Origin: Gammaproteobacteria bacterium
Lineage (GTDB): Bacteria > Pseudomonadota > Gammaproteobacteria > Pseudomonadales > GM7GCV1
Length of the DNA: 28,216 nucleotides
Assembly: GCA_030830945.1 (NCBI GenBank)
Contig: JAURLY010000234.1
Span: 1-28,216, forward strand
Reading direction: 5' to 3'
The notes beneath the pieces are model-generated. The model was not told where the DNA came from, ran no database searches, and saw nothing but the letters and a program-made list of their open reading frames with translations. The position numbers and the translations under genes are program-made. Positions within the stretch are counted from its first letter, which is position 1; the number at the start of each line of letters is the position of its first letter. Positions 2,795 to 27,953 of this stretch are shown here, piece after piece.

Positions 2795-2828
2795 GTATGC
2801 GGCCTTAATGTTAAATGGTTTTTTAAGG

Positions 2829-4505: not shown

Positions 4506-4510
4506 AAGTT

Positions 4511-10608: not shown

Positions 10609-10688
10609 CCACTTGACTTAACAGTGCTATAAAATCCGCTCTCTTTTTTTTGAGAATCTGCTTTTAATCCAATATCCAGAAGAGCATC

Positions 10689-11498
10689 GTGATTTCCATT
10701 ATCGAAAAAATCCGGGATTGGTATTTTAATCCCTACTCAAAAACCAAATGGGGCCTACTGCCGCTTCTACTTGACGAAAAAAAGATCATGCTTTCACTTT
10801 CGCCAAAGTCAGGTTCCTTGTTTGGTGTTAGCTGGTTTTTTTATCAGGCCAACCTGTGGCAAGACGTCAAAGAACACCCAAAATGGGCACACCACTATCG
10901 TCAGGAAGTCTATTACAAATCCCCCGGGTACCCGGCTAGTTACCGTCACTTTTTTGCCTCGCCCGAAACATACACAAAAATTAAATTGGTCCGGAATCCT
11001 TATTCCAGAGCAGTAAGCTCATATATCCACGCCCTGAGAACGCCAGAAATTTTATACAGGGATACCAGAAACAAATTTACGGCAACCGAATTCAGCTTTG
11101 AAACTTTTTTAGCTGAAGTAGAAAAACTTGGCACCCGTTCATGTGACGTTCACTACCGAACGCAAACGCATGAATTCGAGAGAAATAGCAACTGGGATTA
11201 CCAACATATCGTGCAACTTGAATCTGCTTTCAAAGATATCCCCAAGCTCGAAAAAATATACGATTTAAAAACTTCACCTCTCGAAAATTTCAGGGAATCT
11301 GAACATAATTCGCGCCGGAAAAAATCTGGCAAGAACTATGTAGGGAGCACTGTATTTTCTTCCGGATACATTAAGCACAGCCCCTACCCCTATTTCTACA
11401 ATACTGAATTGGCTCAAAAAGTTCAGGAACTCTATGCTGAGGACTTCAGAAACTTCGGTTATTCTACGGCCATAGAACTACCCTATGCGACAAACTGA
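10689..11498 (+). CDS. Sulfotransferase family 2 (CHST/HNK-1-like carbohydrate sulfotransferase)
   Basis: LSPKSGS (5'-PSB), LVRNPYSRAVSSY (RxPxxRxxSxY 3'-PB), DVHYRTQ, and C-terminal ELYAEDFRNFGY (Y..DF..FGY). Confidence 0.82.
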   Translation: MISIIEKIRDWYFNPYSKTKWGLLPLLLDEKKIMLSLSPKSGSLFGVSWFFYQANLWQDVKEHPKWAHHYRQEVYYKSPGYPASYRHFFASPETYTKIKLVRNPYSRAVSSYIHALRTPEILYRDTRNKFTATEFSFETFLAEVEKLGTRSCDVHYRTQTHEFERNSNWDYQHIVQLESAFKDIPKLEKIYDLKTSPLENFRESEHNSRRKKSGKNYVGSTVFSSGYIKHSPYPYFYNTELAQKVQELYAEDFRNFGYSTAIELPYATN

Positions 11499-11521: not shown

Positions 11522-12541
11522 ATGGCCTCCAAAAACATCTACCTTCTAAGTGACGGCTGCTATCCAACGGAAGATCTCTACTTTCGAGGCGTGATTTCCT
11601 CTCGTCTTAAAAAAAACAAAATTGGAAGTTCGAAATACATCAACTGCAAGCAAACTCACCCGGATTATTTAAAAAGCCGCCTGTCCAAAAATGACATTAT
11701 TATCATTTTTCGTACACTACCTCCGATCTGGGCACTGTCTATGCCAGAAATATACGAGCAAGCCGGCAAGACAATCTATGTTCTCGATGACGACCTCCGG
11801 GTAGCTGCGAACACACCAAGCCTTCCAGAAAACTACCGCGAGCGCATAGGACACTTTGCCGAGCATTATCATCGACTGCTGCTAGACTATAGCGATGCAC
11901 TGGTAGTTAGCTCGAAATATTTGGCCGGACAATACGCTGACTACTCACCACGCCTACTACACCCAAGCCTGCTAATTAACCAAGAAAAATCAAGCGACCC
12001 CAATGCCAAAAAACTATGGGTCTGCTATCACGCAACCAGTTCTCACCAAGCAGATCTTGAATTTGTTACACCGGCGCTGAAGAAAACTTTAGCTAATCCG
12101 AACGTTGCATTTGAATCATTGATCGGCAACTCCACTCCCGATGACCTTAGTGCTTACCCCAACGTCATTTCTCGCAGCCCTAAATCCTGGCGAGGGTTTC
12201 AAAGATTCCAGCGTGCCTGTATCAGGCATATCGGGATAGCTCCCTTACTCGACACACCTTACAATCTCGGAAAATCACACATAAAATTTCTGGACATTGC
12301 AGCTGTTGGCGCCGTGGGCATATTCAGCAACCGGCCGCCCTATTCTGATGTCGTGGTAAATGGAGAAAATGGCCTACTGGCTAATGATGACCCGGATGAG
12401 TGGCATCATCATCTAAATCATCTAATCTCTAACCCCAAAAAGGCGGCTGAAATGGCATTTAATGCTCGTAAAACAGCATTTAAAATCGGGCATCCACGCC
12501 AGTCTTATCGTTTTTGGCGACAATTACTGAGCGAAAACTGA
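11522..12541 (+). CDS. GT-B glycosyltransferase (GT4-like)
   Basis: IYVLDDDL, ALVVSSKYLA, IGIAPLLDTPYNLGKSHIKFLDIAAVGAVGIFS, VVNGENGLLA, then LISNPKKAAEMAFNA. Confidence 0.78.
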   Translation: MASKNIYLLSDGCYPTEDLYFRGVISSRLKKNKIGSSKYINCKQTHPDYLKSRLSKNDIIIIFRTLPPIWALSMPEIYEQAGKTIYVLDDDLRVAANTPSLPENYRERIGHFAEHYHRLLLDYSDALVVSSKYLAGQYADYSPRLLHPSLLINQEKSSDPNAKKLWVCYHATSSHQADLEFVTPALKKTLANPNVAFESLIGNSTPDDLSAYPNVISRSPKSWRGFQRFQRACIRHIGIAPLLDTPYNLGKSHIKFLDIAAVGAVGIFSNRPPYSDVVVNGENGLLANDDPDEWHHHLNHLISNPKKAAEMAFNARKTAFKIGHPRQSYRFWRQLLSEN

Positions 12542-12695: not shown

Positions 12696-15600
12696 ATGCC
12701 TAACAAAAAACAAAGGATAGCTATTGTCGGCATGGCCTTCCGTTTTCCGGGAGACATCGATAATCAGGAGAAATTTTGGAGCGCACTCACTAAAAAACAA
12801 GACCTGGTGACAGAAATAGGCGCGGATCGCTGGGACAGCAGTATTCTCAAACACTCCAGAAAATCCGAGGCTGGCAAAAGCTATGTATTTTCTGCAGGAC
12901 AGCTAAAGCGCATACAGGAATTTGATGCCCAGTTTTTTGGTATTTCACCAAGAGAGGCTGGACAAATGGATCCGCAGCAACGGCTTCTGCTCGAACTCAG
13001 CTGGGAGGCCATGGAAAATGCTGCGGTTAACCCAGAAACACTGGAAGGTTCTGACACCGCAGTCTATGTTGGCATTGCCAGTACTGATTATGCGCAAAGA
13101 CGCATGGATGACTTTTCATCCGCAGATGCTTATTCCATGACGGGATCAACAGCGAGCATTGCATCCAACCGAATTTCTTATATTTTTGACCTTCACGGGC
13201 CAAGTATGTCTATCGATACGGCCTGTTCCAGTTCTCTGGTCGCATTACACCAAGCCTGTAATTCCATTTGGAAAGGTGAAGCCAGCAAGGCCCTGGTAGG
13301 CGGGGTGAACCTGCTACTACACCCGTTTGGGTTCGTTGGTTTTTCCAAAGCATCCATGTTGTCTGCCAGCGGTCGCTGTCGTGCTTTTGATGCTGGCGGA
13401 GATGGCTATGTTCGCTCAGAGGGATGTGCCGTTCTATACCTCAAGCCTCTTGAACAGGCGGAAAAAGATGGCGATCGAATTCATGCAGTCATTGTTAATA
13501 CAGGTGTGAACTCAGACGGTCGAACCAATGGCATCACGATGCCCAGTTTTGATGGTCAATCTGCGCTATTGAAAAAGGTTTACGAAGAGGCTGGGATTAA
13601 CGTCAATGAGATTGATTACATTGAGGCCCACGGAACCGGAACTGCTGTGGGTGACCCTATCGAGGCCACAGCAATTGGTGAAACGCTCGCTAAACTTCGT
13701 TCTCACAAACACTTTCTTCCTATTGGCTCCGTCAAGACCAATGTTGGCCATATGGAAACTGCCTCTGGTATGGCCGGCATCGTAAAAGCAATTCTCTGCC
13801 TAAAACACCGAGCTATTCCTCCCAATCTGCATTTTGACGTCCCAAATCCCAATATTGATTTTGATGGTCTAAATATCAGTGTTGTTGACCAGATGTCCGA
13901 ATTCCCGGAATCAGATAAGAACCTTATCGCCGGGGTCAACTCATTTGGTTTTGGGGGAGCTAATTCACATGCAATTCTGGAAGAATACAGGGATACACAG
14001 GCGCGAAGCTCTGACATTCCTGATGATATAGAAGCGCCGCCGCTCTTTCTTTCAGCCGCCAGCCCTGCCGCTCTCAAACAAATGGCCGAGCAGTACGCAG
14101 ATTTTTTACGTACTAATTCCGCTTGGTACTACGATATTGCCTATCAGTTGGCGCACAAACGGGCGCACCTGAATAACGGCCTGGCCGTCAAAGCGAAGTC
14201 CGTTAGCGGCCTAATCAGGTCTCTGCGAAGTTATATCGAGGGTGAGGAAAATTCTGCGGTTGTCACACAGACACTTGTCGAGAAAAAAGCAGTCGTCGCG
14301 TTTATTTATTCCGGGAATGGATCTCAGTGGCTGGGAATGGGGCGCGACCTATTCGCCGCTGATGAGCTATTTGCCGAAAAGCTTGGCGAGGTGGATGAAC
14401 TTCTTAAAGAGCATGTGGATTACTCAATTATTGAGGAACTCCATGCAGAGCCGGAAAACTCACGTTTCCACCTGACAGAAATCGCCCAGCCCGCTCTCTT
14501 TGCAATTCAGGTAGGTATTACCGAATGGCTGGCAGATCAGGGCATTAAGCCCAAGGCAGTCGCCGGCCATAGTGTTGGCGAAGTGACCGCTGCCTGGGCG
14601 GCTGGTGCATTGACTTTAAAACAGGCTACCCACCTTATTGTTGAGCGAAGTGCAGCACAGGGCCTGACACGTGGCACAGGCCGCATGTCTGCCATGGGGC
14701 TAGGGCAGGAAAAAGCGGTCAGCCTTATTGACGAATTAGGACTTAAGGGCCAGGTTGAGATTGCCGGCGTAAACAGCACGAAATCAGTCACACTGGCCGG
14801 TTCCCTCCCCGCATTACAAAAACTCGAATCTGCTGCCGGGCAAAGGGATGTTTTTTATCGAATACTGGATCTTGATTACGCCTTCCACAGCAAGTACATG
14901 GATCCAGTAAAAGATCGTTTGCTAACCTCATTGGAAAGCCTAAGGCCGGGCCAAACCTCAGTGCCTATGTATTCCACCGTAATCGGCAAAAAAATCGATG
15001 GCAAAAAATTTACTGCCCAGTACTGGTGGGAAAATGTGCGACGTCCTGTGGCCTTTGGCAAAGCCGTTGATGCAATGATTGAAGACGGCATCCATGTATT
15101 TATGGATGTCGGACCCCATCCAATTATGCGCGGCTATCTTAACGAATGCTTGCGAAATGCAAATATTCGCGGTTTGGTTAGCCCAACGCTAATGAGAAAA
15201 TCCGATGAAGTTCAGGATATCCAGCGTGCGCTGTTAAGTGTTCATCTTGCTGGGGCATACATGGACCTTGATCGTCATTTTCCGGTTCCCGGCACTCATA
15301 TCGAATTGCCTACCTACCCTTGGCAGCATCAGGGATATTGGCATGAGGTTACGGATGAAGGGTATAACCTCACTGGCCGCCGTGTTGAACACCCATTACT
15401 TGGTTACCGCCTTAAACCTGGACTTCCTCAGTGGGAGATTCATCTTGACTGCGAGACTGTACCCTACTTGGCAGATCACGTCGTAGGCAATGGCGAGGTA
15501 ATGCCGGCTGCTGCCTATGTAGAAATGGCTTTGGCCGCTGCAAAAATTTGGTATCAGGAAGATAGCTTCCATGAGCTGGAAGACCTGGAAATTCGCTCTC

Positions 15601-18600
15601 CCATGCTTTTTGAAGCCGATCAATTGCGCACACTGCGTTTTGAGCTTTCCGAAGCCTCTGGACATTTCGTTATAAAAAGTCGCCTAAGACTCACCGATGA
15701 CGCCTGGACAGAACATGTTGTTGGCCGTGTTTTGCATCATAGCTCTGCACCCAATGATTCTTCTCAAGCCATTCAATTTTCCAAAAACCCTGAGGGCAAA
15801 ACCCTATCTGGTCAAGAGCATTACCAAATCGCAGCTGAGCTAGGGTTGAAATATGGCCCTTGCTTCCAGGGTATTGAACAAGTATGGGTATCCGGTAATA
15901 GTGCTGTGGCTAGCGTTACCACCCCAGATGGCATCAATGATCGATTTGAGCAACACGTACTGCATCCTTGTTATCTGGATTCCTGCTTCCAAGTGCTTGT
16001 CGGGCTAATGAGCAACCAGTTTTCTGGAGATAAAGCCAGCGCCATGATCCCTGTGAGGATCGGTCGCTTACGAACTTACAGCACAGGAAAAATAAATTGG
16101 TTTAGTGCGCAAATAACTCGCCAAAGTCCACTATCAGTTTTGGCAGACTTTCAATTATTTGATGTTAATGGCGAACTTGTTGCCAGAGCGGAAGATTGCC
16201 GATTTCGAGCTGTTAACTTTGCACAAGACGCTCATGAAACTGGTATATACGAATATCTTTTGCAGCCAAAGTCGAATGCATACTCTGCCAACAGCTCCGA
16301 AGCCCTGGACACAAAAAACCTGGCAAAAACAGCTGAAAATATTCTTAATGGCGAGGCGCAGGTAAAACGACGACAGACGCTATACTCTGAAGTGGTTCCT
16401 TTGCTGGACACTCTCATCGCATGCTACGCCTATGAGGCGCTCAATCATTTTGCTGAGAATCAGGATCTGGAGCTTGATTCGCTTTTTTCAGATCATGGCG
16501 TAGAACCAAGGCATCAATATCTGGTATCTCGTCTATTACAGATTCTGGAAGAGCAGTCTTGGGCAACAAAACAAGATGACAACTCGTGGAAATTAGCCCC
16601 GAGTGAAGAAATTCCCGATAGTCAGTCTGTATGGCTGACACTTATAGGTGATTACCCTGGTTTGATGCCAGAAGTGTTACTCGCCGGTCGAGCAGGAACC
16701 AATCTTAGTGATTTGCTTTCTGGAAAACGCAAGGTGGAAGATTTCATCAAGCCGGGTAAATCCAGTGGCCTAAAAGACCATATGGCAGACACCGCTCTGA
16801 GCATCAAAGGCACCATGGATAGTCTGGTGGATGTTCTTGGTCAATGGACCAGCCAACGGGAACAATATTTCCGTGTTCTACATCTGGGCAACGGCCAAGG
16901 GAAGCTATGTCAACGCATCATAAAAATGCTTCCTGTTAATTCGGATTATCACTACCTCCATGCAGATGCTGAAGTCTGCGGAAAAGTTGAGGCGCTCATT
17001 GAGGATTACCCTCAAGCCCAGGTATCACAAATTGATTTTGAATCCGCTGATGACTGGAATGAATTTACTGACCAACAAGCTCCTTTTGATCTGGTAATCG
17101 TCAACGAAACACTTCATGCCCACACTCACCCTGACCGACTTCTGCAGACGCTACGATCTGCCATGAGTGCAGAGTCACTATTGTTATGCATGGAGAAAAA
17201 TCCTTCTCGTCTTGGCGATATCACTTTTGGCCTTGATGATGATTATTGGCATCGAACAACGAACCCGGAAAATCCAACACCGCTTCGATTGCACGTTAAC
17301 AAATGGGCCAGCTTGACTCAGTCGGCAGGTTTTACAGACACACAGGCCATTAGCGATGACCCCGACAAGATTTCCGGCTCTTACTTACTACTTGCCAGAA
17401 ATGAAGCTGCACCAGAAGTTCTGGTTACAGAGAAACGTTGGCTGATCGTAACTGACTCAACAGCTAACGCCAATTCCTTGACTCACACGCTGGCTGAGCA
17501 ACTCCCGGCTAATATTCATGCAACATATCTGTCTCATCAAGCGGGCTGCAACAAACTGGAAACGCCGGATGAAGGTCAAAATATACTGGATTTGGTTAAC
17601 GGCAATTTCTCTGAAAACCTGGATAAGCTCGAACTAACCCAAATTGATTCTGTGCTATTTCTCTGCGGCTTAAATACCCGTCATAGCGAACTGGGTGACA
17701 GCCTTAATTTAAGAACAGTAGCCGCATTAAATATTGCAAAACTTATTAATACTGTCACCGAAAACCGTCCATCTCTTCGCTTGGTAACGCTGGGAGGCAG
17801 CACAGCATCTGTCGGCAAAAAACATCTGGCTGACGCTGCCCTTTGGGGGCTTGGACGCGTTATTCGCAATGAAATTGCAGACATCGATTGTAGCCAGATT
17901 GATCTTGCTGATGACAAGCCCGAATCCCTGCTTCCTACGCTCATCACAGAATTACAACACCCGAATAACGACCGTGAAATCGTGCTCGAAAAAACTCAGC
18001 GATACGTGCTGGAGATGCAATCCAGACCTATCAAGAAAGGGCAGGAAGAAGACTGGAACGGGCCTATCAAGTTAGACTTTAGCGATCCCGGGCTTTTGAA
18101 AAACCTTCAATGGGTTCCTCTCAAGGATCAATCTCCTGGAAATGGTGAACTTAAGATCCGACCAATGGCCTCCGGACTTAATTTCCGCGATGTTATGTAT
18201 GCCATGGGCTTGCTATCGGATGAAGCTGTCGAAAGTGGATTTTCAGGACCCACACTCGGTATGGAATTTGCGGGTGAAGTAGAAGCAGTTGGTAAGGAAG
18301 TCACCGGTTTCAGCGTTGGCGATCGCGTTATGGGTTTTGGCCCTGCCTGTTTTAGTACCCAGCTAATCACAAAAGCAACAGCTGTAGCGCATATCCCACA
18401 GACATGGCTATTTGAAGAAGCGGCTACCATACCCACAACTTTCTTCACCGCATACTACGCACTTGATCATCTTGCCCGCCTTCAGGAAGGTGAACGCATA
18501 CTGATTCACGGTGGCGCCGGCGGTGTAGGTATTGCAGCCATTCAACTGGCTCATTATTTGGGAGCAGAAGTCTTTGTAACTGCCGGCTCAGATGAGAAGC

Positions 18601-20318
18601 GTGACTTTGTTCGTCTCATGGGCGCTGACCATGTACTTGACTCACGAAGCTTAAATTTTGCCGATGACATTATGGCGCTCACAGATGGAGAAGGCGTTGA
18701 TGTTGTGCTCAACTCATTAGCCGGCGAGGCAATCAATAAGAACCTTAAAATTCTGCGCCCATTTGGTCGATTCCTTGAGCTCGGAAAACGAGATTTTTAC
18801 GAGAATTCGAGGATCGGGTTACGCCCATTCCGCAATAACATCTCTTATTTCGGCATAGATGCAGATCAATTAATGGTGGAAAAACCCGCACTTGCTGAAC
18901 GGGTATTCAAAGAACTGATGTCGATTTTTGAAGAAGGCGCTCTGCGCCCACTTCCTTACCGAGTGTTTAATGCCACACGAGCCGAGGAAGCTTTCCGCTA
19001 TATGCAACAGGCACGCCAGATTGGCAAAATCCTGATCAACTATGAAGACCTGCCTAAGGTTAAATGCCCAGTAAAAGAACAGCGTGACAGTCTCCAACTT
19101 GATCCCGAAGCGACCTATCTGGTTACTGGAGGTTTGGGTGGATTTGGTTTGGAAACGGCAAAGTTTCTGGCAAGCAAGGGTGCCAAACATTTAACCCTCA
19201 TAAGTCGTTCCGGAACTTCACCGGAAAGTTCTATCGCGTCCTTCAATGAATTATCCCAGATGGATATTGAATTGAGCTGTCACTCCATTGATGTCACTAA
19301 TCATGAACAGTTATCCGAGCTATTTGAAGATTTTGGCTCTTCTTTGCCCCCTCTGAAAGGAATTGTTCATGCCGCTACCGTATTCGATGATGGACTATTG
19401 CAAAACCTGGATGCAACTCGCATGCGCAATGTCCTTGACCCTAAAGTCATAGGTGGATGGAATTTGCACGAACTAAGCAAACCTCTCGACCTGGACATGT
19501 TCATTGTCTACAGCTCGGTAACTACCTATTTTGGCAACCCAGGCCAAGGCAACTACGTTGCTGCAAACAGCGCGTTGGAAGGTCTGGTGGAGCTGCGAAA
19601 AAATCAGGGGTTAAAGGGTTTGTTCGTCGCGTGGGGCGCCATCAATGATGCAGGCTTCCTTACCAGAAACGAAGATGTAAAAGATGCTTTACAAGCCCGA
19701 CTGGGTGGTTCTTCTCTAACATCCAAACATGCGCTATCAATTTTGGAAGAATTACTTTTAAGTGATCGCACAGGTTGTGCCGTAATGGATATTAACTGGG
19801 GACCAATGAAGCGTTTTCTACCCATATCCAGCTCTAATCAATACCGCATCCTCAACTGGCAGGCTGCCAGACAAGGTGGCGACGATGATCAGGGAGAAGA
19901 TATCCGCGAATTGCTCAAAGGATTGGACCATGAAGACGCGCTGGCGAAGGTAGCGGAATTACTTTCACGAGAAATTGGACATATCCTGCGAATACCTGCC
20001 GACAAACTTGATCAGCAGACGTCTGTTTTCGATCTAGGCATGGATTCACTCATGGGAGTGGAACTGGCTATGGCCGTTGAAAAACGTTTCAACGTGAATA
20101 TGCCGGCTATGGCACTTTCTGAGGGTCCTTCAATCCTGCGACTATCGGAGCGCATAATTCAGAAGCTCATGGGTGCCGAAATCGAGCAGGAAGACAACCA
20201 AGATAAAGACAGCGTTCGACGACTTGCCAATGTCCACAACGAGAACCTCGGTGAAGAAGGACTGGAAGAGTTGAGCAACAAAATGAAGTCCTCTGACAAA
20301 AACAGCAGTATTCTGTAA
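12696..20318 (+). CDS. wcbR: Highly reducing type I polyketide synthase, WcbR/RkpA type (KS-AT-DH-degenerate MT-ER-KR-ACP)
   Basis: KS: MDPQQRLLL, DTACSSS (C177), EAHGTGT, KTNVGH. AT: GHSVG (S626), YAFH (728-731). DH: DHVVGNGEVMP (H928). MT-like: VLHLGNGQG. ER: IHGGAGGVG, GRFLELGK. KR: TGGLGGFG, VFDD, GNYVAAN (Y2287). ACP: LGMDSL (S2451). No TE or reductase release domain. Confidence 0.95.
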   Translation: MPNKKQRIAIVGMAFRFPGDIDNQEKFWSALTKKQDLVTEIGADRWDSSILKHSRKSEAGKSYVFSAGQLKRIQEFDAQFFGISPREAGQMDPQQRLLLELSWEAMENAAVNPETLEGSDTAVYVGIASTDYAQRRMDDFSSADAYSMTGSTASIASNRISYIFDLHGPSMSIDTACSSSLVALHQACNSIWKGEASKALVGGVNLLLHPFGFVGFSKASMLSASGRCRAFDAGGDGYVRSEGCAVLYLKPLEQAEKDGDRIHAVIVNTGVNSDGRTNGITMPSFDGQSALLKKVYEEAGINVNEIDYIEAHGTGTAVGDPIEATAIGETLAKLRSHKHFLPIGSVKTNVGHMETASGMAGIVKAILCLKHRAIPPNLHFDVPNPNIDFDGLNISVVDQMSEFPESDKNLIAGVNSFGFGGANSHAILEEYRDTQARSSDIPDDIEAPPLFLSAASPAALKQMAEQYADFLRTNSAWYYDIAYQLAHKRAHLNNGLAVKAKSVSGLIRSLRSYIEGEENSAVVTQTLVEKKAVVAFIYSGNGSQWLGMGRDLFAADELFAEKLGEVDELLKEHVDYSIIEELHAEPENSRFHLTEIAQPALFAIQVGITEWLADQGIKPKAVAGHSVGEVTAAWAAGALTLKQATHLIVERSAAQGLTRGTGRMSAMGLGQEKAVSLIDELGLKGQVEIAGVNSTKSVTLAGSLPALQKLESAAGQRDVFYRILDLDYAFHSKYMDPVKDRLLTSLESLRPGQTSVPMYSTVIGKKIDGKKFTAQYWWENVRRPVAFGKAVDAMIEDGIHVFMDVGPHPIMRGYLNECLRNANIRGLVSPTLMRKSDEVQDIQRALLSVHLAGAYMDLDRHFPVPGTHIELPTYPWQHQGYWHEVTDEGYNLTGRRVEHPLLGYRLKPGLPQWEIHLDCETVPYLADHVVGNGEVMPAAAYVEMALAAAKIWYQEDSFHELEDLEIRSPMLFEADQLRTLRFELSEASGHFVIKSRLRLTDDAWTEHVVGRVLHHSSAPNDSSQAIQFSKNPEGKTLSGQEHYQIAAELGLKYGPCFQGIEQVWVSGNSAVASVTTPDGINDRFEQHVLHPCYLDSCFQVLVGLMSNQFSGDKASAMIPVRIGRLRTYSTGKINWFSAQITRQSPLSVLADFQLFDVNGELVARAEDCRFRAVNFAQDAHETGIYEYLLQPKSNAYSANSSEALDTKNLAKTAENILNGEAQVKRRQTLYSEVVPLLDTLIACYAYEALNHFAENQDLELDSLFSDHGVEPRHQYLVSRLLQILEEQSWATKQDDNSWKLAPSEEIPDSQSVWLTLIGDYPGLMPEVLLAGRAGTNLSDLLSGKRKVEDFIKPGKSSGLKDHMADTALSIKGTMDSLVDVLGQWTSQREQYFRVLHLGNGQGKLCQRIIKMLPVNSDYHYLHADAEVCGKVEALIEDYPQAQVSQIDFESADDWNEFTDQQAPFDLVIVNETLHAHTHPDRLLQTLRSAMSAESLLLCMEKNPSRLGDITFGLDDDYWHRTTNPENPTPLRLHVNKWASLTQSAGFTDTQAISDDPDKISGSYLLLARNEAAPEVLVTEKRWLIVTDSTANANSLTHTLAEQLPANIHATYLSHQAGCNKLETPDEGQNILDLVNGNFSENLDKLELTQIDSVLFLCGLNTRHSELGDSLNLRTVAALNIAKLINTVTENRPSLRLVTLGGSTASVGKKHLADAALWGLGRVIRNEIADIDCSQIDLADDKPESLLPTLITELQHPNNDREIVLEKTQRYVLEMQSRPIKKGQEEDWNGPIKLDFSDPGLLKNLQWVPLKDQSPGNGELKIRPMASGLNFRDVMYAMGLLSDEAVESGFSGPTLGMEFAGEVEAVGKEVTGFSVGDRVMGFGPACFSTQLITKATAVAHIPQTWLFEEAATIPTTFFTAYYALDHLARLQEGERILIHGGAGGVGIAAIQLAHYLGAEVFVTAGSDEKRDFVRLMGADHVLDSRSLNFADDIMALTDGEGVDVVLNSLAGEAINKNLKILRPFGRFLELGKRDFYENSRIGLRPFRNNISYFGIDADQLMVEKPALAERVFKELMSIFEEGALRPLPYRVFNATRAEEAFRYMQQARQIGKILINYEDLPKVKCPVKEQRDSLQLDPEATYLVTGGLGGFGLETAKFLASKGAKHLTLISRSGTSPESSIASFNELSQMDIELSCHSIDVTNHEQLSELFEDFGSSLPPLKGIVHAATVFDDGLLQNLDATRMRNVLDPKVIGGWNLHELSKPLDLDMFIVYSSVTTYFGNPGQGNYVAANSALEGLVELRKNQGLKGLFVAWGAINDAGFLTRNEDVKDALQARLGGSSLTSKHALSILEELLLSDRTGCAVMDINWGPMKRFLPISSSNQYRILNWQAARQGGDDDQGEDIRELLKGLDHEDALAKVAELLSREIGHILRIPADKLDQQTSVFDLGMDSLMGVELAMAVEKRFNVNMPAMALSEGPSILRLSERIIQKLMGAEIEQEDNQDKDSVRRLANVHNENLGEEGLEELSNKMKSSDKNSSIL

Positions 20319-20339: not shown

Positions 20340-21701
20340 ATGAGCAAAGAAAAAAAATCGCTATTCGGCCTCTCGGGCCAGGCCAAGGAACGCCTGATTC
20401 AGGCGGCTCTGGATAAGCGAAGTGAGTCTTCAGGGAGACAACAACCAGAAGATGATGCTCATTCCAGGTTTTCCAGTGAACGTCGACTAAAGATTGACCC
20501 TTCGCTCTGTCGTTTCGACAGTTATCCTAATTACAAGGATATGCTGATCCAGAAAGCGGCATCTGAACAACTTGGATTAGAAAACCCCTTTTTTAGAGTC
20601 CATGAGGGCATTGCAGCAGACACTTCGGTCGTCAATGGTAAGGAATGCATTAACTTCAGCAGCTATAACTATTTGGGGCTCAGTGGAGATCCCCGAGTTA
20701 TGGATGCAGCCAAGAAAGCCATTGATCAATACGGAACTTCTGCCTCTGCCAGCCGCCCAGTATCCGGGGAACGGCCAGTTCAAAGGCAATTAGAGCAAAA
20801 ACTTGCAGAGTTATATGGAACTGAGGATTGTGTCGTTTTTGTCAGCGGACATGCAACTAACGTCTCAACCATCGGTTACCTTTTTGGCCCTAACGACCTG
20901 ATTATCCACGACTCGTTGATACACAATAGCGTGCTGATGGGCATTCAGCTCTCTGGCGCTTTTAGGTTGTCTTTTCCTCATAATGACTGGAAAGCCCTCG
21001 ACCGAATTCTTTCCGAACGCCGCAAAGATTATCAACGGGTACTGATTGTTACGGAAGGCATCTACAGCATGGATGGCGACTTCCCCGACCTTCCCAAATT
21101 CATCGATATCAAAAAACGCCACAAGGCATTCTTGATGGTGGATGAAGCTCACTCTCTGGGGATTATGGGGGAACGCGGCAAGGGGATAGCCGAGCACTTT
21201 GGGATTTCCGGAAACGATGTAGATATCTGGATGGGAACACTCAGTAAAACCTTGGGAAGTTGTGGTGGCTACATTGCAGGAGAAACAGCACTGGTGAACC
21301 ATCTTAAATTCGCAGCGCCGGGTTTTCTTTACAGTGTCGGTATCTCACCGCCTCTTGCAGCGGCATCGCTCAAGGCTCTGGAGATACTGGAGCAGGAGCC
21401 ACATCGAGTTCGCCACATTCAACACAATGGCGAATTTTTCAAAAAACGCGCTGATGAGGCCGGTCTGGATACAGGTTTAAGCATGGGTTTATCCATTACA
21501 CCCTTAATCATAGGCAGTTCCATTAAAGCAACGCGCTTGTCCAACCTGCTCTTTGAAAAGGGTATCAATGTACAACCAATTATTTATCCTGCGGTCGAAG
21601 AACGCGCCGCTCGTTTACGATTCTTTATTTGCGCCAGTCATACTGAAGAACAAATAGAATCCACAGTCAAAATCGTTCAAGATCAACTGGCAAAAATTTA
21701 G
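20340..21701 (+). CDS. wcbT: PLP-dependent alpha-oxoamine synthase (BioF/SPT family), WcbT/RkpG type
   Basis: NFSSYNYLGL, GTSASASR, FVSGHATN, HDSLIHNS, FPHND, EGIYSMDGD, VDEAHSLG, GTLSKTLGSCGGY (PLP K303), RLRFF. Starts 21 nt after the PKS stop. Confidence 0.92.
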   Translation: MSKEKKSLFGLSGQAKERLIQAALDKRSESSGRQQPEDDAHSRFSSERRLKIDPSLCRFDSYPNYKDMLIQKAASEQLGLENPFFRVHEGIAADTSVVNGKECINFSSYNYLGLSGDPRVMDAAKKAIDQYGTSASASRPVSGERPVQRQLEQKLAELYGTEDCVVFVSGHATNVSTIGYLFGPNDLIIHDSLIHNSVLMGIQLSGAFRLSFPHNDWKALDRILSERRKDYQRVLIVTEGIYSMDGDFPDLPKFIDIKKRHKAFLMVDEAHSLGIMGERGKGIAEHFGISGNDVDIWMGTLSKTLGSCGGYIAGETALVNHLKFAAPGFLYSVGISPPLAAASLKALEILEQEPHRVRHIQHNGEFFKKRADEAGLDTGLSMGLSITPLIIGSSIKATRLSNLLFEKGINVQPIIYPAVEERAARLRFFICASHTEEQIESTVKIVQDQLAKI

Positions 21702-21725: not shown

Positions 21726-22529
21726 GTGACCAAAGCTCGTGTGCTGCTTTGCACCAGCGGTGGCATTTGTGCCACTTTGAGTCTCCAGGCTTTACTGGCA
21801 ATTGATGAGGTAGCCGTCGCGGGCGTATTTCTTTCGACCCGTGCTCGCACAAAAAACGGCAGTTTTACCGGTGATGTGCTTCGAATCATTCGCACTTCCG
21901 GCCTCAGTTACGCTAGTTATCTGGCTATGGGAACAACCATTTTTGACTGCTTTCGTTTACCCGGAACGTTGCCCACAGTAAATAAGCTGGCCAAGCTGCA
22001 CAAAATCCCTTTTTTCTGCTCAAATGATATCAACTCTACTGATTCGCACACCTGGTTGTCGAAACAATTCCCGGATATTCTGTTATCGAGCTTTTTTAAC
22101 TTGAAACTCTCACCCGCCACAATAGCTATTCCCTCGCAGACTGCTATTAACTTACATCCGGCCCTTTTACCCGCCTATAAAGGCGTCGACCCTGTTTTCT
22201 ATTATTTTTCGAATAACGAAAATATTTTTGGGGTCAGTCTGCACAAAATAGCGGAAGAATTTGATACTGGAGAAATAATCGCACAAAAAAGCATGTCTAA
22301 AAATCCGGACAAAAGTGTTTTTTGGCACAACATCGAACTGTTTCGCCATGGCCTAGAACTTTTTCACGCATGGATATCTTCCCCATCGCCAGCTACAAAC
22401 ATCGAAAATACAGATATCAACGATCAATATGATTCATGGCCATCACCAGATCAGGTAAAAAAACTAGGCCATCCTCTCTACAGTTTTTCTGACTTTCTGG
22501 AACAAAGCAGAAGACCTTTTGGATTATGA
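21726..22529 (+). CDS. N10-formyl-THF-dependent formyltransferase (Formyl_trans_N domain only)
   Basis: AINLHPALLPAYKGVDP (N-x-H and LLPxYKG motif), GVSLHKIAEEFDTGEII (catalytic Asp). At 267 aa it is shorter than a full methionyl-tRNA Fmt. GTG start. Confidence 0.85.
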   Translation: MTKARVLLCTSGGICATLSLQALLAIDEVAVAGVFLSTRARTKNGSFTGDVLRIIRTSGLSYASYLAMGTTIFDCFRLPGTLPTVNKLAKLHKIPFFCSNDINSTDSHTWLSKQFPDILLSSFFNLKLSPATIAIPSQTAINLHPALLPAYKGVDPVFYYFSNNENIFGVSLHKIAEEFDTGEIIAQKSMSKNPDKSVFWHNIELFRHGLELFHAWISSPSPATNIENTDINDQYDSWPSPDQVKKLGHPLYSFSDFLEQSRRPFGL

Positions 22530-22535
22530 TAATCC
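22521..22535. repeat. Perfect 7-1-7 palindrome GGATTAT-G-ATAATCC on the overlapping stop codons
   Basis: Read directly. It spans TGA (22527-22529) of the formyltransferase and TAA (22526-22524) of the dioxygenase. Confidence 0.85.
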
Positions 22536-23510
22536 GGTTCGACTAACGGCTTTTGGTCGTCGCCTGATAGTGCTTATTGACCTGTTTAACGCAAGGCGGT
22601 CTAACCATCGCCACCCTGGAATAGGCAAAAGCAGAAAGGGATTTATTCGATTACTAAACGCCATGGATAGCCGGGTGCTATTCGCCGAGGCTTCTCCCCG
22701 ACGATGAAAACCAAAAGTATCGGCAACAACCAAGGTATTCGCCTTGACTTCCAATGATCGAATCGGCCCATAACCCAGAGCTTCAATTTCGGAATCATCG
22801 ACTCTCAATGAACCACGACGGGCATAGGTCGCGCCCTCCTCTTTTACACCCAAACTTTGACGATACTCCCACATCAAACGTTTCCAGGTAAGCCGATTGG
22901 AACCCTGTACAAATTCGAAAGGCCCCTTGCTCGAGTCGACATCCTCCAGAAATAACCAGGCTTTCATGGTCGGGTGAAAGGTGTCCGAATGAAAATACTT
23001 TTGGGGGTCACCCTGCCGGCTTCCTCCCACATTAACCACCCTGAGAAAATCCATCCAGGGAGATAAACCACAGGCAGCCACATATTTCATTAAACGATTC
23101 AAAGAATCGTTATGCGCCAGTTTTTTGCATGCAGGCAGCAACTGCTGCCGTTTAGAGTCGAGATATACGAATTCAGTAGTGGTATCACCCTGCACGAAAT
23201 ATCGAACTTCTGGCCATTCCGAATTAGCTTCTTGCTGCAATGCGAGAAAGTGCTCATTTGGCACAGCGTTTTCCAAAATAACAAAACCGTTCTGGCGAAA
23301 CTGATTTTTCATATCCGCCGGCAATCGCCAACCAAGGATAAATCGGCGAACACCGGTTAAACTATGCGCCAGAAGAACTCGCAATACATGCAAACCCAAT
23401 CGATTGAGCAAATGGTTGCCAATAACCGGGTTGGCTTCAAAGGATTTTGCTTCGGTAAATATTTCCAGAAACCAAACGGGATACCGAAACATGTTCGAAG
23501 TTTTTTTCAT
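22524..23510 (-). CDS. Second PhyH-family Fe(II)/2-oxoglutarate dioxygenase
   Basis: PQKYFHSDTFHPTMKAWLFLEDV (HxD), GPFEFVQGSNR, VVADTFGFHRRG (distal His), RLSMAF. The start may be 23510 or 23492. Confidence 0.85.
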   Translation of the reverse strand: MKKTSNMFRYPVWFLEIFTEAKSFEANPVIGNHLLNRLGLHVLRVLLAHSLTGVRRFILGWRLPADMKNQFRQNGFVILENAVPNEHFLALQQEANSEWPEVRYFVQGDTTTEFVYLDSKRQQLLPACKKLAHNDSLNRLMKYVAACGLSPWMDFLRVVNVGGSRQGDPQKYFHSDTFHPTMKAWLFLEDVDSSKGPFEFVQGSNRLTWKRLMWEYRQSLGVKEEGATYARRGSLRVDDSEIEALGYGPIRSLEVKANTLVVADTFGFHRRGEASANSTRLSMAFSNRINPFLLLPIPGWRWLDRLALNRSISTIRRRPKAVSRTGLS

Positions 23511-23596
23511 GAGTTAAGGTTATATGTTGATCATCGCAATCATACCAATTTCATTAGACTGTTTATGCCATTCCTTGGCCTCTATGGAAACGCCTG

Positions 23597-25687
23597 GTGA
23601 CTGATATTCCAGAAAAAAAATATAACTCTGCACTCTGTTTATCTGACGGGATAGCATCAGTACCTAATCTGGCATTTTTTACCGGGGCAAACAAACATCG
23701 CTCTACCCGCGGTCTTAATTTTCCCTGGCAACTCGGCAATGCTGACCTGATTGTCGACTGGGGCAATAAAAGGCTGGATTTTTGCCAGAAACTTGTCGAC
23801 AAACAACAGGTCGATATTCTTCGTCTGGAGGATGGATTCATTCGTTCTCTTGGCCTGGGCGTCGAGGGCAGTCGGTCATTTTCAATTGTCAGCGACTGGA
23901 GTGGTATATATTACGATGCTCGCAAGGCGTCAGATTTAGAGAAAATCCTGAATGGCCAACATGTGCTTTCCCACAGGTTATCTGGATTACACCAGCGCGC
24001 CAAATCCTGTATTGATCTAATCCGGAAGCATCAGCTATCGAAATATAACCACGCTCCAAGTCTTGATCTGGGAACCCGCAAAGGACTACGAATTCTACTG
24101 GTAGATCAAACGGCCAACGACCTGTCTATCTCTGGGGGATTGGCATCAAAGCAAAGCTTTGAGCAGATGCTGCAAGATGCCTTGACCGAAAATGATTCAG
24201 AAATCTTCATTAAAACTCACCCAGATGTTCTTTGCGGCAAGAAACAAGGCTATCTCACTAATCAAAAATTACCAAAAAATGTCCGAATAATTGGCAAAAA
24301 CTGCAACCCTCTCAATTTGATAGAACAAGTAGACGAGGTTTGGTGCGTCACTTCCCAAATGGGCTTTGAGGCCTGTATGGCCAGAAAAAAAGTACGCTGC
24401 TACGGCATGCCTTTTTATGCCGGATGGGGCGTAACCGAAGACCAGATAAAACTGGATCGAAGGACAGAAAGGCGCTCACTGGAAGAAATTTTTATCGCCG
24501 CTTATTTACTCTACAGCACCTATTTCGATCCTGACACGGGTGAGATCTGCGATTTAGAAATCGTCATTGATCACATTGCACGGCAAAAGCATTACTGGGG
24601 ACAAAACCGTGGGCATTTTATTTGCCTGGGTTTTGACGCCTGGAAGCACACTTACGTACGGGATTATTTGCGCAGTGATGACAACAGAATTACATTCAAG
24701 AAAAAACTAAGTAATACCGACGTTAAAAGCCAGCCTCGCATACTGGTTTGGGGCATTAATGCCGACAAGGGTTCCCTGAAGTTAGCCCATCGTCACGGGC
24801 TTCCTATTGCCACCATGGAAGATGGGTTTATTCGATCTGTAAACCTGGGAAAGTATGGAACTGCGCCTCGATCTCTGGTGATTGATCAACAGGGGATATA
24901 CTTCGACCCGGAATCAAACTCCGATCTGGAAAAAATCCTTTCTTCAGATACTTTCTCCGAAGATGAGCTGAGGCAAGCCAAATCGTTGATTAAGACGATT
25001 ATTGAAGGCGGCTTAAGCAAATATAATGTCGGCGAGATTGTCCCGATAAGCGTAAACAACCAGCCCCAGCAGAAATTGATTCTCGTCCCGGGGCAAGTGG
25101 GAATCGACGCGTCGATTGCCAAGGGCTGTGACCAAATACATACCAACATGGCACTTTTGGCGGAAGTTCGCAGGCTTAACCCCGATGCATTTATTTTATT
25201 CAAACCCCACCCGGATATCGTTTCCGGAAATATCAATGAATACGGCAACTATGCAGAATATGCCGATCAGATTGAGCCATATGCGCATATTCATGCCTGT
25301 TTAAGTATTGCCGACGAGATACACACCATGACATCACTGGTGGGCTTTGAGGCGCTGATAAGACAAATTCCCACAACTACTTATGGTCGCCCCTTTTACG
25401 CTGGCTGGGGGCTGACAAGGGACTTAACCACAAAAAAGATGCCTAATCGGGATCGACAACTTAACCTCGAACAGCTGGTCGCGGGGGTCTATGTGAAATA
25501 TCCAAGATACATCAATCCTGCTACAGGCGAATTCACTTCAGCGATTCGATCAGTGCAGGGATTACAGAAAGAATTATCAGAGAAGGGTGTCACCCGAATA
25601 AGTAGCTCACTATTCAATCGCTGGTATCTTAAAGTTCGTTACGGAGGCTGGGGAATGTTAAAAACACTGCTTTCTAAAAATCGATAG
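23597..25687 (+). CDS. kpsC: Capsule linker beta-Kdo transferase KpsC (two GT107 domains; WcbA/RkpZ-like)
   Basis: Duplicated motifs EDGFIRS, YYDARKASDLE / YFDPESNSDLE, SKYN (twice), GQV..DAS, KTHPD / KPHPD, TSQMGFEA / TSLVGFEA, YGMPFYAGWG / YGRPFYAGWG. GTG start. Confidence 0.93.
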   Translation: MTDIPEKKYNSALCLSDGIASVPNLAFFTGANKHRSTRGLNFPWQLGNADLIVDWGNKRLDFCQKLVDKQQVDILRLEDGFIRSLGLGVEGSRSFSIVSDWSGIYYDARKASDLEKILNGQHVLSHRLSGLHQRAKSCIDLIRKHQLSKYNHAPSLDLGTRKGLRILLVDQTANDLSISGGLASKQSFEQMLQDALTENDSEIFIKTHPDVLCGKKQGYLTNQKLPKNVRIIGKNCNPLNLIEQVDEVWCVTSQMGFEACMARKKVRCYGMPFYAGWGVTEDQIKLDRRTERRSLEEIFIAAYLLYSTYFDPDTGEICDLEIVIDHIARQKHYWGQNRGHFICLGFDAWKHTYVRDYLRSDDNRITFKKKLSNTDVKSQPRILVWGINADKGSLKLAHRHGLPIATMEDGFIRSVNLGKYGTAPRSLVIDQQGIYFDPESNSDLEKILSSDTFSEDELRQAKSLIKTIIEGGLSKYNVGEIVPISVNNQPQQKLILVPGQVGIDASIAKGCDQIHTNMALLAEVRRLNPDAFILFKPHPDIVSGNINEYGNYAEYADQIEPYAHIHACLSIADEIHTMTSLVGFEALIRQIPTTTYGRPFYAGWGLTRDLTTKKMPNRDRQLNLEQLVAGVYVKYPRYINPATGEFTSAIRSVQGLQKELSEKGVTRISSSLFNRWYLKVRYGGWGMLKTLLSKNR

Positions 25688-25693
25688 ATGCGA

Positions 25694-26554
25694 TTAAATC
25701 CAACGCCAGGCATCCGGCGTGTTAAAAAGCGCAGCCATGCCTGAATGATTGGTTACATGCGCTGACGAGTGACAAGTAATCTTTCCCCGAATATCCCCGC
25801 CAACCAATTGCAGGTCACCGATAATATCCAGCACTTTATGGCGCACCATATCATTTGCATGCAGCAGTCCCGAAGGGTTTATCGGTCGACCAAACGCGTA
25901 CACCACAGCAGTATTTAATCCCGCCCCACGCAATACCGGGTTTTTAAGGAAGTTACCCACGATCTTTGGCAACCAAATATCCTTTAGACGCCCCCAGGCT
26001 TTGGCACCAATAATTTCCTGTTTAAACACTGCCGGAGTCATATCGCCGGCCCATGGCATATGACCATACTCGCCCGGATAGATATTAATATCGACGGCAA
26101 AACCATCGTACGGCTCAAACGAAAATTTTCGGTGCTCATTTTCATAGCTGACAGGCTGAAGTATTTCCAGAACTCGACGCTGTTCACCTAAATCAATAGT
26201 CCCTACTTCGTCGATCAACTCGACAATAGGTCGGGCACTGCCATCGAGAATGGGCACTTCTTCGCCCTCGATCTCAACTTCCAGATTATCTATGCCCGTG
26301 GCATAACATGCAGCCATTAGGTGCTCGACCGTTCGTACCGACACCCCTTGATCATTGGCGATGCAAGTACAGGCGGGATATCTAATCACCCTATCCCAAA
26401 GAGCAGGCACCCAGTTGTCCGAACCTTGCCCATCCAATCGGTGAAACCTTATACCCATACCTGCATCTGAAGGTTTTAAGTGCACAATAGCATTACGCCC
26501 GCTATGCATTCCCTTACCATGGAAACTGACGGTTTTTGCGATAGTGTTCTGCAA
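25694..26554 (-). CDS. wcbS: LpxC paralogue, Zn-dependent N-deacylase (WcbS type)
   Basis: QNTIAKTVSFHGKGMHSG, VRTVEHLMAA, DNLEVEIEGEEVPILDGSA, RHKVLDIIGDL, SSAHVTN. Zn and catalytic residues are kept, but the ARTFGF substrate motif is replaced by AKAWGR. The start was set at TTG 26554 (GGAGG 5 nt upstream) instead of 26566. Confidence 0.85.
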   Translation of the reverse strand: MQNTIAKTVSFHGKGMHSGRNAIVHLKPSDAGMGIRFHRLDGQGSDNWVPALWDRVIRYPACTCIANDQGVSVRTVEHLMAACYATGIDNLEVEIEGEEVPILDGSARPIVELIDEVGTIDLGEQRRVLEILQPVSYENEHRKFSFEPYDGFAVDINIYPGEYGHMPWAGDMTPAVFKQEIIGAKAWGRLKDIWLPKIVGNFLKNPVLRGAGLNTAVVYAFGRPINPSGLLHANDMVRHKVLDIIGDLQLVGGDIRGKITCHSSAHVTNHSGMAALFNTPDAWRWI

Positions 26555-26682: not shown

Positions 26683-26731
26683 CAACAGACGGAAATATAC
26701 AACAGACACGAGCATCTCAACGACGAAATAT
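26683..26731 (+). repeat. Three degenerate tandem direct repeats in the kpsS leader
   Basis: CAACAGACGGAAATAT (26683-26698), CAACAGACACGAGCAT (26700-26715), CAAC-GACGAAATAT (26718-26731, ending in the ATG). Confidence 0.55.
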
Positions 26732-27953
26732 GCCCGACGCCCGCCATTTCCTCTTTTTACAAGGACCAATCTCGCCTTTTTTTCCGTTGCTGGCAAAAAA
26801 ACTGGAGGGGCAAGGACACAAGGTTTTTAAAATAAACCTTAACCTGGGCGATCAATTGCATTGGAAGTGTACGAATACTTCTAATTATCGAGGGAAACTG
26901 GAACACTGGGATAACTGGATTGGCCAGTACTATCATGACCACCAGATTACTGACATCCTGCTTCTTGGTGAACAGCGCGAATATCACCAAATAGCTATCC
27001 AGAAAGCACGGAATGAAAACATTCAGGTTATTGTTACCGATTTCGGCTACTTGCGTCCCGACTGGATTACCTTTGAGCACAACGGGATGTCTTCTGAGTC
27101 CCTTTTTCCGCAATCCCCCGAAGAAATTATGGCGTTAGCCGATCAATGCGGCACTCGCGATATGAAAAAAGTGTATCAGGATTCTTTTTTCAATCAGGCA
27201 TATTGGGATGTGCTTTACCATTTTGCGGCCATTCTGGGCTGGATATTTTTTCCGGGCTATGACAATTTCCGGCGCCATAATCCCGTTCAGGACTATCTTG
27301 GTATTTTGGTCCGACTCATGCGACGTCGATGGGTGGAGCCCAAAGCATCAAGCTTTGTAGAATGGATTAGCGCAAGTGACATTCGCTACTTTGTCTACCC
27401 GCTTCAGCTCCAGCACGATTATTCCATTCAGGCATATTCTCCCTACGATGGTAACGACCAGCCTATGGAAGACATCTTGCGCTCATTCGCGCATTCATCA
27501 CCTAAGGACGTCCATCTGGTAGTGAAAATTCACCCACTAGATCCCAACCCTTTTAAATGGAAGCGCATGGTACTTTCTGGCGCGAGACGCTTTCATATAG
27601 CTGACAGAGTACATTTTCTCGACGGTGGAAATCTGCAAAAACTGCTCTATTCGGCTCAGGGAATGATTACCATCAATAGCACGACAGGCATAGCCACCTT
27701 GCAGGAAGGTATTGCCACCAAAATATTGGGCAGTGCAATCTACGACATTGAAGGATTGGTCAGCAAGCAGTCTCTGGACGAATTCTGGAATGATCCCACA
27801 CATCCAGACATCCCCTTACGCGATGCGTTTATCAAGGCGCTGACAGACACCGTGCAACTGAAAGGAACCTACTATCAGCAGCCCGGTCTGGATAATGCTG
27901 TTGAAGAAGCCGCACACCGCTTGCTTAATAACAAGATTAACCAACCCTATTAG
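26730..27953 (+). CDS. kpsS: Capsule priming beta-Kdo transferase KpsS (WcbO/RkpJ-like)
   Basis: FLFLQGPISPFF, DFGYLRPDWITFEHNG, PLQLQHDYSIQAYS, VKIHPLD, ITINSTTG, KILGSAIYDIEGL, TVQLKGTYY. Confidence 0.92.
   Translation: MPDARHFLFLQGPISPFFPLLAKKLEGQGHKVFKINLNLGDQLHWKCTNTSNYRGKLEHWDNWIGQYYHDHQITDILLLGEQREYHQIAIQKARNENIQVIVTDFGYLRPDWITFEHNGMSSESLFPQSPEEIMALADQCGTRDMKKVYQDSFFNQAYWDVLYHFAAILGWIFFPGYDNFRRHNPVQDYLGILVRLMRRRWVEPKASSFVEWISASDIRYFVYPLQLQHDYSIQAYSPYDGNDQPMEDILRSFAHSSPKDVHLVVKIHPLDPNPFKWKRMVLSGARRFHIADRVHFLDGGNLQKLLYSAQGMITINSTTGIATLQEGIATKILGSAIYDIEGLVSKQSLDEFWNDPTHPDIPLRDAFIKALTDTVQLKGTYYQQPGLDNAVEEAAHRLLNNKINQPY

Follow-up and report, generated by a model that had tools for sequence, protein, structure and literature searches.

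Gene content of the capsule locus

We analysed a stretch of 28,216 nucleotides (the window) from a gammaproteobacterium of the order Pseudomonadales (assembly GCA_030830945.1, contig JAURLY010000234.1), and in particular two of its genes: one for a stand-alone formyltransferase (FT) and one for a non-canonical paralogue of the deacetylase LpxC, here called LpxC2. According to Pfam and NCBIfam models, the window is a capsule locus of the Kps (ABC-transporter) type with KpsS, KpsC and Kps export genes (Table 1). It includes a reducing type I polyketide synthase (PKS) that ends in an ACP and is followed after 21 nt by an alpha-oxoamine synthase (AONS), the gene order that characterizes modules of the wcb/rkp/sga type. 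The AONS matches the NCBIfam models for bioF, Kbl and serine palmitoyltransferase, in each case under the equivalog cut-off; KpsS scores 235 bits on the NCBIfam KpsS model, under its cut-off of 600.

The FT gene starts 24 nt 3' of the AONS gene. The original prediction for this DNA had placed a stand-alone formyltransferase directly after the oxoamine synthase, and both the open reading frame (ORF) and its assignment to the Formyl_trans_N family are borne out. LpxC2 lies between kpsC and kpsS, and the stretch 21726-26554, which runs from FT to LpxC2, also holds a PhyH-like gene and kpsC between the two. Both FT and LpxC2 are conserved in relatives, and therefore neither is a chance ORF: they are real genes and part of a gene set for a polyketide-derived, sphingolipid-like capsule lipid. 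Judged by its sequence, the AONS would release the PKS chain as an amino-ketone lipid. A PKS gene of the same type precedes AONS-FT in related loci.

The window holds no genes for amino-sugar nucleotides (DegT-type sugar aminotransferase, 4,6-dehydratase), no short-chain reductase of the WcbP/RkpH type and no LtaS-like WcbQ. The best matches to the reductase in the window genome (G000; 1.96 Mb assembly, 87% complete) and in the closed genome of a congener (G092) are generic short-chain dehydrogenases/reductases, 29-33% identical.

Table 1. Genes of the window and their coordinates
Gene or product	Position	Strand	Remarks
kpsD, kpsM, kpsT, kpsE	2793-7124	+	Kps export genes
GT2 glycosyltransferase	7135-9057	+	
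First PhyH-type dioxygenase	9054-9848	+	
Two sulfotransferases	9913-11498	+	
GT1-like glycosyltransferase	11522-12541	+	
Highly reducing type I PKS, 2540 aa, WcbR/RkpA/SgaA type	12696-20318	+	Pfam domains KS-AT-DH-MT-ER-KR-ACP, no thioesterase
AONS (BioF/SPT family)	20340-21701	+	Pfam Aminotran_1_2, 160.7 bits
FT, 267 aa	21726-22529	+	Pfam Formyl_trans_N, 59.6 bits (cut-off 26.1)
Second PhyH-like Fe(II)/2-oxoglutarate dioxygenase	22524-23510	-	Pfam PhyH, 26.2 bits; convergent with FT
KpsC (beta-Kdo linker transferase)	23597-25687	+	Tandem Capsule_synth domains; Pfam PF05159, 259 bits
LpxC2, 290 aa	25694-26566	-	Non-canonical LpxC paralogue; Pfam LpxC, 231 bits
KpsS	26730-27953	+	Pfam PF05159, 229.6 bits; ~165 bp from LpxC2, in divergent orientation

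The formyltransferase is linked to the oxoamine synthase

The match of FT to Pfam Formyl_trans_N is confined to profile positions 75-157. Three strong matches to this family on other contigs of the window genome are ordinary members, and FT is an extra copy. The same genome also carries a further, weak Formyl_trans_N-like ORF (30.7 bits; open frame of 227 aa) at positions 755-1027 of contig C262. A word-indexed protein search places FT in a small clade of about two dozen clusters (31-100% identity); its list missed the FT genes carried by two related loci, L131 and L135. The triad Asn142, His144 and Asp180 is invariant in 20 clade members, and the clade has a C-terminal YDSWP motif of its own. 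The triad aligns with the catalytic NLH...D segment of ArnA, whose N-domain is homologous to FT (E 4e-28). By sequence, the nearest solved relatives of FT are this ArnA N-domain, the GDP-perosamine N-formyltransferase WbkC, and Fmt. The AlphaFold model of FT (predicted local distance difference test, pLDDT, 90.5) has the formyltransferase fold, with template modelling (TM) scores of 0.64-0.68 to the ArnA N-domain and Fmt. Residues 47-75 (window 21864-21950) form a helical, rather hydrophobic insertion that lies outside the Pfam match and is missing in the nearest solved relatives. Going by the model, this insertion might be a lid or a lipid-binding surface.

Gene neighbourhoods were collected by scanning metagenomes with a DNA pattern built from two motifs of the FT clade. 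All 57 loci recovered this way are confirmed members of the clade (118-376 bits). A contig scan with the FT alignment on universal formyltransferase motifs returned generic formyltransferases only, the best with 44% identity over 89 residues. The related loci are not independent of each other, many are short, and few of them extend past the 7.6-kb PKS on its upstream side.

In 38 metagenome loci, 600 bp or more of DNA upstream of FT are available, and 37 of these have an AONS gene there; the AONS shares the strand of FT in 42 of 43. Wherever the DNA extends far enough, a PKS is found ahead of AONS-FT. The PKS-AONS-FT order also occurs in Leucothrix sargassi, in the loci L013 and L135 and in genome G117; in G250 and G432, AONS-FT is convergent with an LtaS-like gene. 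Besides FT, the L. sargassi locus holds a homologue of the LtaS-like WcbQ, a reductase and KpsS, and shows no LpxC2 within 10 kb. The usual genes 3' of FT are an LtaS-like/sulfatase-family gene of the WcbQ type, a short-chain reductase of the WcbP type, and KpsS. Where 4 kb or more of downstream DNA are available (15 loci), the reductase is present in nine, WcbQ in eight, KpsS in eight and LpxC2 in one. In this variant of the module, FT belongs to the core and is a fixed partner of the enzymes that make the lipid.

Two loci carry FT with no capsule genes in view, and with an Rv2949c-like gene and housekeeping genes next to it. L013 (1-12310) begins with a gene of the LPG_synthase_C family and continues with PKS, AONS, FT, the Rv2949c-like gene, and DUF6122 and LRAT genes; L154 (1-2704) begins inside AONS, followed by FT and the Rv2949c-like gene. 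From its gene content, this architecture resembles a self-contained aminolipid pathway. A plasmid of Microbulbifer sp. MKSA007, a cultured sponge isolate, has a distant FT (27% identity) after two capsule-synthesis genes (L206; CP128431.1, record 207126-225866). This locus also carries an oxoamine-synthase-like gene, a reductase and kps export genes.

An enzyme that modifies sugars should be encoded among those genes of a capsule locus that vary with serotype. FT travels with AONS, also where no capsule genes are in view, and for this reason we take it to act on the amine of a polyketide-derived long-chain base and not on a capsule sugar. This bears on one of two routes in the original prediction, in which LpxC2 deacetylates an amino sugar and FT then formylates it, giving an N-formyl sugar in the capsule. 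The presence of the sugar N-formyltransferases ArnA and WbkC among the closest solved relatives of FT speaks for such an acetyl-to-formyl swap. However, FT tracks AONS, inside and outside capsule loci, and not the variable sugar genes; the window has no genes for amino-sugar nucleotides, and LpxC2 is missing in most FT loci. The route is not upheld by these observations, and we consider it highly improbable.

LpxC2 is a paralogue with altered substrate motifs

The Pfam LpxC match of LpxC2 covers positions 1-267 of 268. Its start is either at 26566 (TTG) or at ~26554, the latter as in a 286-aa relative (P0004). The canonical lpxC of the window genome lies directly after ftsZ on contig C107 and scores 358 bits, against 231 for LpxC2; the two proteins are 30% identical, and LpxC2 is a true paralogue. 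Among the 121 nearest database sequences, 46 form the LpxC2 clade (support 0.996). Fourteen of these, with at least 55% identity, make up the subclade of the window's LpxC2, and the other 32 the wider clade.

The original prediction described a paralogue that keeps the TVEH and HKxxDxxGD motifs and the general-acid histidine and changes the substrate motifs. This description holds throughout: LpxC2 reads TVEHL and HKVLDIIGD and has the histidine, ARTFGF is changed to AKAWGR and GGSxDxAIV to GAGLNTAVV. We assigned roles to the pocket residues following the product complex of E. coli LpxC (PMC10254716). The residues of catalysis and zinc binding (E78, H79, H238, D242, D246 and H265, with H79, H238 and D242 as zinc ligands) are kept in all 46 clade members. 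At the uridine site, all 46 sequences have other residues for D160 and F161 (in the subclade, Tyr and Pro) and a deletion of the residue that follows. A Ser takes the place of K262, which contacts phosphate and uracil, throughout the subclade (14/14) and in half of the other sequences (16/32). The phosphate residue K143 is Arg in 13 of the 14 and mixed in the rest (Arg in 16/32, His in 9/32); the other phosphate residue, K239, is Lys or Arg throughout (46/46). The hexose pocket residue F194 is Arg in 41 of 46 sequences, including the whole subclade, all 14 members of which also have T191A and F192W at the oxyanion and hexose pocket positions. The positions of the acyl-chain tunnel (M195, I198, F212 and V217) are still hydrophobic in the window's subclade.

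To judge by these residues, LpxC2 conserves the chemistry of LpxC and, in the window's subclade, a site for a long chain, and it has lost the nucleotide site and shortened the adjoining loop. Its model (pLDDT 92.9) has a TM score of 0.92 to the LpxC structures of E. coli and P. aeruginosa. LpxC2 stays under the equivalog cut-offs of NCBIfam for LpxC: 172.7 against 187.25 bits on TIGR00325, and 212.2 against 423 on PRK13187. In our reading, LpxC2 is not a lipid A enzyme and is more probably a zinc amidase that uses the catalytic machinery of LpxC.

The full LpxC fold with every catalytic residue in place would also be compatible with a spare or condition-specific LpxC that serves lipid A. The low identity to the genome's own LpxC, the loss of D160 and F161, the Ser in place of K262 and the scores under the equivalog cut-offs all argue against this role, as does the position of the gene in capsule/PKS loci and not with ftsZ. 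So does the narrow distribution of the type. Among 151 genomes of the order, LpxC2 occurs only in the window genome and one congener. A search with an LpxC2 profile through 400 sampled genomes of the class, including the window genome, found no LpxC2-type sequence in the 399 others; the threshold was loose, and the best other matches are all canonical, with ARTFGF, the F161 loop and K262. A spare LpxC is about the least probable of the roles that we considered.

Loci of LpxC2

A PKS or AONS gene lies within 10 kb of LpxC2 in 9 of 12 loci, in six different gene orders. The first is that of the window, shared by L008, L131 and L199. In the second (L009), a divergent PKS is followed by glycosyltransferases, DUF707, LpxC2, KpsS and PhyH; the third (L133) has kps export genes and then LpxC2-PKS-AONS. 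The fourth (L134) comprises an LPG_synthase_C gene that overlaps the start of LpxC2, followed by P450, GerE and PKS genes, with no capsule genes in view. The fifth (L135) reads PKS-AONS-FT, PhyH, WcbQ, reductase, KpsS, LpxC2, sulfotransferase and kps export genes. In the sixth (L197), AONS-FT converges on an LpxC2 gene of the wider clade that lies immediately next to it. LpxC2 is a rare addition to the lipid module.

Three loci deserve separate mention. At L134:4351-6179, the stop of the LPG_synthase_C gene (the C-terminal family of MprF) overlaps the start codon of LpxC2. This overlap suggests translational coupling of the two genes and a lipid substrate in common. L130:13176-16597 has insertion-sequence genes (DUF772, DDE transposases) in the place of PKS-AONS-FT; the locus retains KpsS, an LpxC2 that is 69% identical, KpsC and a PhyH-like gene. 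At L132:7923-14420, LpxC2 and a PhyH-like gene are found amid a GFO/IDH/MocA oxidoreductase, a hexapeptide transferase and a DegT aminotransferase. Such a set is reminiscent of 3-amino sugar synthesis for lipid A or O-antigen, and L132, by its gene content, makes the strongest case that a sugar may be the substrate of some LpxC2 members.

A sugar substrate is at the centre of an explanation that does without FT: LpxC2 might deacetylate a HexNAc of the capsule, or a lipid-linked HexNAc primer, either for N-sulfation (cf. the deacetylase half of the heparan sulfate enzyme NDST) or for a lipid-A-like anchor. The Vi antigen is a precedent for a capsule with a dedicated terminal lipid anchor that resembles lipid A. 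Besides the sugar-nucleotide genes of L132, the sulfotransferases are in favour of this explanation, as they occur in the window (9913-11498), are fused to glycosyltransferases in L009 and directly follow LpxC2 in L135. However, the parts of LpxC2 that have changed are precisely the uridine-binding residues and the hexose pocket, the LpxC2 of L134 stands beside a PKS with neither capsule nor sulfotransferase genes in view, and a PKS or AONS accompanies LpxC2 in nine of its 12 loci. We regard HexNAc deacetylation as rather unlikely.

The two genes are paired in one direction only

The original prediction had named the co-occurrence of FT and LpxC2 in related loci as a check on their joint action, and the outcome is divided: the two are paired in close relatives of the window and in the distant loci L135 and L197, but four of six FT genomes are without LpxC2. 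The six are genomes with a member of the FT clade, and those with LpxC2 are the window genome and its congener G092. Viewed from the other gene, FT is confirmed in six of the 12 LpxC2 loci, its position lies beyond the edge of the available DNA in three (L009, L133 and L134), and none was seen within 10 kb of LpxC2 in L010, L132 and L130. An obligate pairing like that of ArnA and ArnD was not found, given the four genomes of six without LpxC2 and its presence in only one of the 15 FT loci that extend 4 kb or more downstream. The pairing is one-way: LpxC2 is mostly found where the lipid module is, and FT is independent of LpxC2. Such a pattern agrees with an optional step that follows or accompanies that of FT, and disagrees with an obligatory cycle of formylation and deformylation.

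The same pattern might be explained by a formyl group that is permanent. LpxC2 would then have its place elsewhere in the lipid pathway, where it might cleave another aminoacyl or small N-acyl residue or make the amine available to a further acylation, so that the two enzymes share a pathway and not a bond. Most FT genomes and loci are without LpxC2, as expected in this case, and genes of the LPG_synthase_C family are close at hand, overlapping the start of LpxC2 in L134 and lying upstream of PKS-AONS-FT in L013. However, the window contains no gene for an alternative N-acyl donor, and FT is the sole amide-forming enzyme beside the lipid genes. We take this explanation to be unlikely, if less so than HexNAc deacetylation.

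A possible pathway for the capsule lipid

We favour a reading in which FT and LpxC2 tailor the lipid made by the PKS and oxoamine-synthase module of a Kps-type capsule locus, with LpxC2 acting on a small N-acyl group; its chances appear to us close to even, if slightly below. Its two parts differ in strength. From the gene linkage, the formylation of an aminolipid by FT is somewhat more probable than its contrary, and a role of LpxC2 as the deformylase of that lipid is conceivable and distinctly less probable. The second route of the original prediction, in which the aminolipid is formylated and the formyl group later removed by LpxC2, thus stands in its first half, which is backed by the linkage, but only halfway in its second, where removal is plausible as a lineage-specific step. 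In its boldest form, LpxC2 would be the first enzyme of the LpxC family to work off the lipid A precursor, as an N-deformylase or small-N-acyl amidase of a capsule anchor in a protect-deprotect cycle with FT; this we propose tentatively and hold to be doubtful.

The pathway would start with the PKS, which would build a long acyl-ACP, and the AONS, which would condense it with an amino acid to a 2-amino-3-keto lipid. FT would then move a formyl group from 10-formyl-tetrahydrofolate onto the amine of this lipid. An oxoamine synthase that depends on pyridoxal phosphate requires a free amine on its amino-acid substrate, and formylation should therefore follow the condensation. Since a PKS and oxoamine-synthase pair is known to make sphinganines (PMC12134224), the substrate of FT is most likely a long-chain 2-amino-3-keto or 2-amino-3-hydroxy lipid. 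The formyl cap would also block the self-condensation of free alpha-amino-ketones. Within the common architecture, the WcbP-type reductase and the LtaS-like WcbQ would act next, WcbQ being a plausible source of a phosphoglycerol head group like that described in PMC12134224, after which KpsS and KpsC would add the Kdo primer to the lipid.

The PhyH-like dioxygenase and LpxC2 may replace WcbP and WcbQ in the window's genus, where LpxC2 would remove a small N-acyl group, most simply formyl, from the same lipid in a step that is optional and specific to the lineage. An N-acyl sphingoid phosphodiester, with phosphate at C1, an amide at C2, and oxygen and the long chain at C3, has a layout similar to that of the LpxC substrate, and we propose that LpxC2 could recognize it on this account.

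Several points weigh against this pathway. The gene linkage, the kept catalytic residues, the changed pocket and the one-way pairing are observations; from linkage and pocket residues we infer both substrates, and likewise the order of the steps. The nearest solved relatives of FT (ArnA, WbkC and Fmt) act on sugars and tRNA. The acyl-chain tunnel is the least confident part of the LpxC2 model (pLDDT 63-77). No LpxC2 was found in G117, G250, G432 and G424, genomes of three genera that are 99-100% complete and have one LpxC match each. The match in G117 is canonical on the Pfam model (380 bits), and those in G250, G432 and G424 score E 1e-69 to 1e-74 on the LpxC2 profile, the level of the sampled canonical sequences, against 1e-130 for the window's LpxC2. 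With four of the six FT genomes lacking LpxC2, a formyl group, if made there, stays in place or is removed by another enzyme. The loci L010 and L132 have neither PKS nor FT within 10 kb of LpxC2, and the general substrate of the LpxC2 clade may therefore not be a formamide. Furthermore, deformylation in the window's genus, which is without a WcbP-type reductase, would expose the reactive amino-ketone again. Several absences amount to genes not seen in loci that are mostly short and rarely include the DNA ahead of the PKS.

The PhyH-like gene is a third mosaic partner, present at 22524-23510 of the window, at L132:10855-11943 and at L136:6158-7159. Its orthologues occur in L008, L009, L130, L131, L132, L135 and G117; the gene adjoins LpxC2 in L008, L009, L130, L131 and L132, and adjoins FT without LpxC2 in G117 and L174. 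The copy in L132, a locus without PKS, is 39% identical. The window's PhyH-like dioxygenase had no match among NCBIfam models; one guess is that it hydroxylates the lipid base.

Significance

The capsule module of a PKS and an oxoamine synthase has long been known genetically, and the lipid made by modules of the wcb/rkp type has been an unsolved question since the 1990s, on which the sphinganine result (PMC12134224) bears. The fixed association of a formyltransferase with PKS-AONS implies a modified amine in this variant of the module, which is widespread in marine and fresh water. A formylated base would have a simple mass-spectrometric signature, +28 Da, and culturable carriers exist: Leucothrix sargassi for the FT clade, and the Microbulbifer sponge isolate for the distant FT in a plasmid-borne capsule locus. 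LpxC, which is also a drug target, has so far been treated as a family with a single function. A clade that has the chemistry of LpxC and no nucleotide site would show re-use of the scaffold, and would offer a natural specificity control for LpxC inhibitors.

Comparison with known systems

We found no paper in the open-access literature on an LpxC paralogue of the LpxC2 kind, or on linkage of FT to PKS-AONS. The closest gene sets are wcbO-T of Burkholderia pseudomallei, rkp-1 of Sinorhizobium and wcbPQRT of Cobetia marina, which likewise have an iterative reducing PKS and an oxoamine synthase beside KpsS/KpsC in an ABC-transporter capsule locus (PMC11766843; PMC3908369). The capsule of C. marina is sulfated (PMC11766843), and the window likewise contains sulfotransferases. 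Compared with these systems, the window adds a formyltransferase, a PhyH-like dioxygenase and an LpxC paralogue, and is without the WcbP/RkpH reductase and the LtaS-like WcbQ. The original prediction had noted that no formyltransferase is among the wcbO-T or rkp products; this agrees with Cobetia, where only wcbPQRT are reported (PMC11766843).

SgaA and SgaB of Pseudomonas fluorescens MYb115, a PKS and an alpha-oxoamine synthase, make C24-C28 sphinganines and phosphoglycerol sphingolipids (Peters et al. 2025, PMC12134224). The SgaAB products have a free amine. The words formyl and capsule have zero occurrences in the main text of PMC12134224, and thus neither a formyltransferase nor a link to capsules is described there.

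Ceramide synthesis in Caulobacter (Spt, bCerS, CerR) would be an analogous case, as there too the product of an oxoamine synthase is N-acylated. The Caulobacter route places this N-acylation before the reduction of the ketone. By this analogy, formyl would be the acyl group in the window's lipid, with a putative transferase that would depend on folate and be unrelated to bCerS.

LpxC itself, the UDP-3-O-acyl-GlcNAc deacetylase, shares with LpxC2 the fold, the zinc ligands, the general base and the general acid. LpxC2 differs in that it has no uridine site and a remodelled hexose pocket, and in being a second copy that resides in a capsule/PKS locus.

The nearest parallel to the proposed chemistry is the pair ArnA/ArnD of L-Ara4N synthesis: FT resembles the N-domain of ArnA, and the proposal shares with that pair the notion of a formyl group that sits for a time on an amine while an envelope lipid is modified. 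Here, however, the substrate of FT is probably a lipid amine and not a UDP-sugar, the candidate deformylase belongs to the LpxC family and not to the ArnD type, and the two enzymes form a non-obligate pair.

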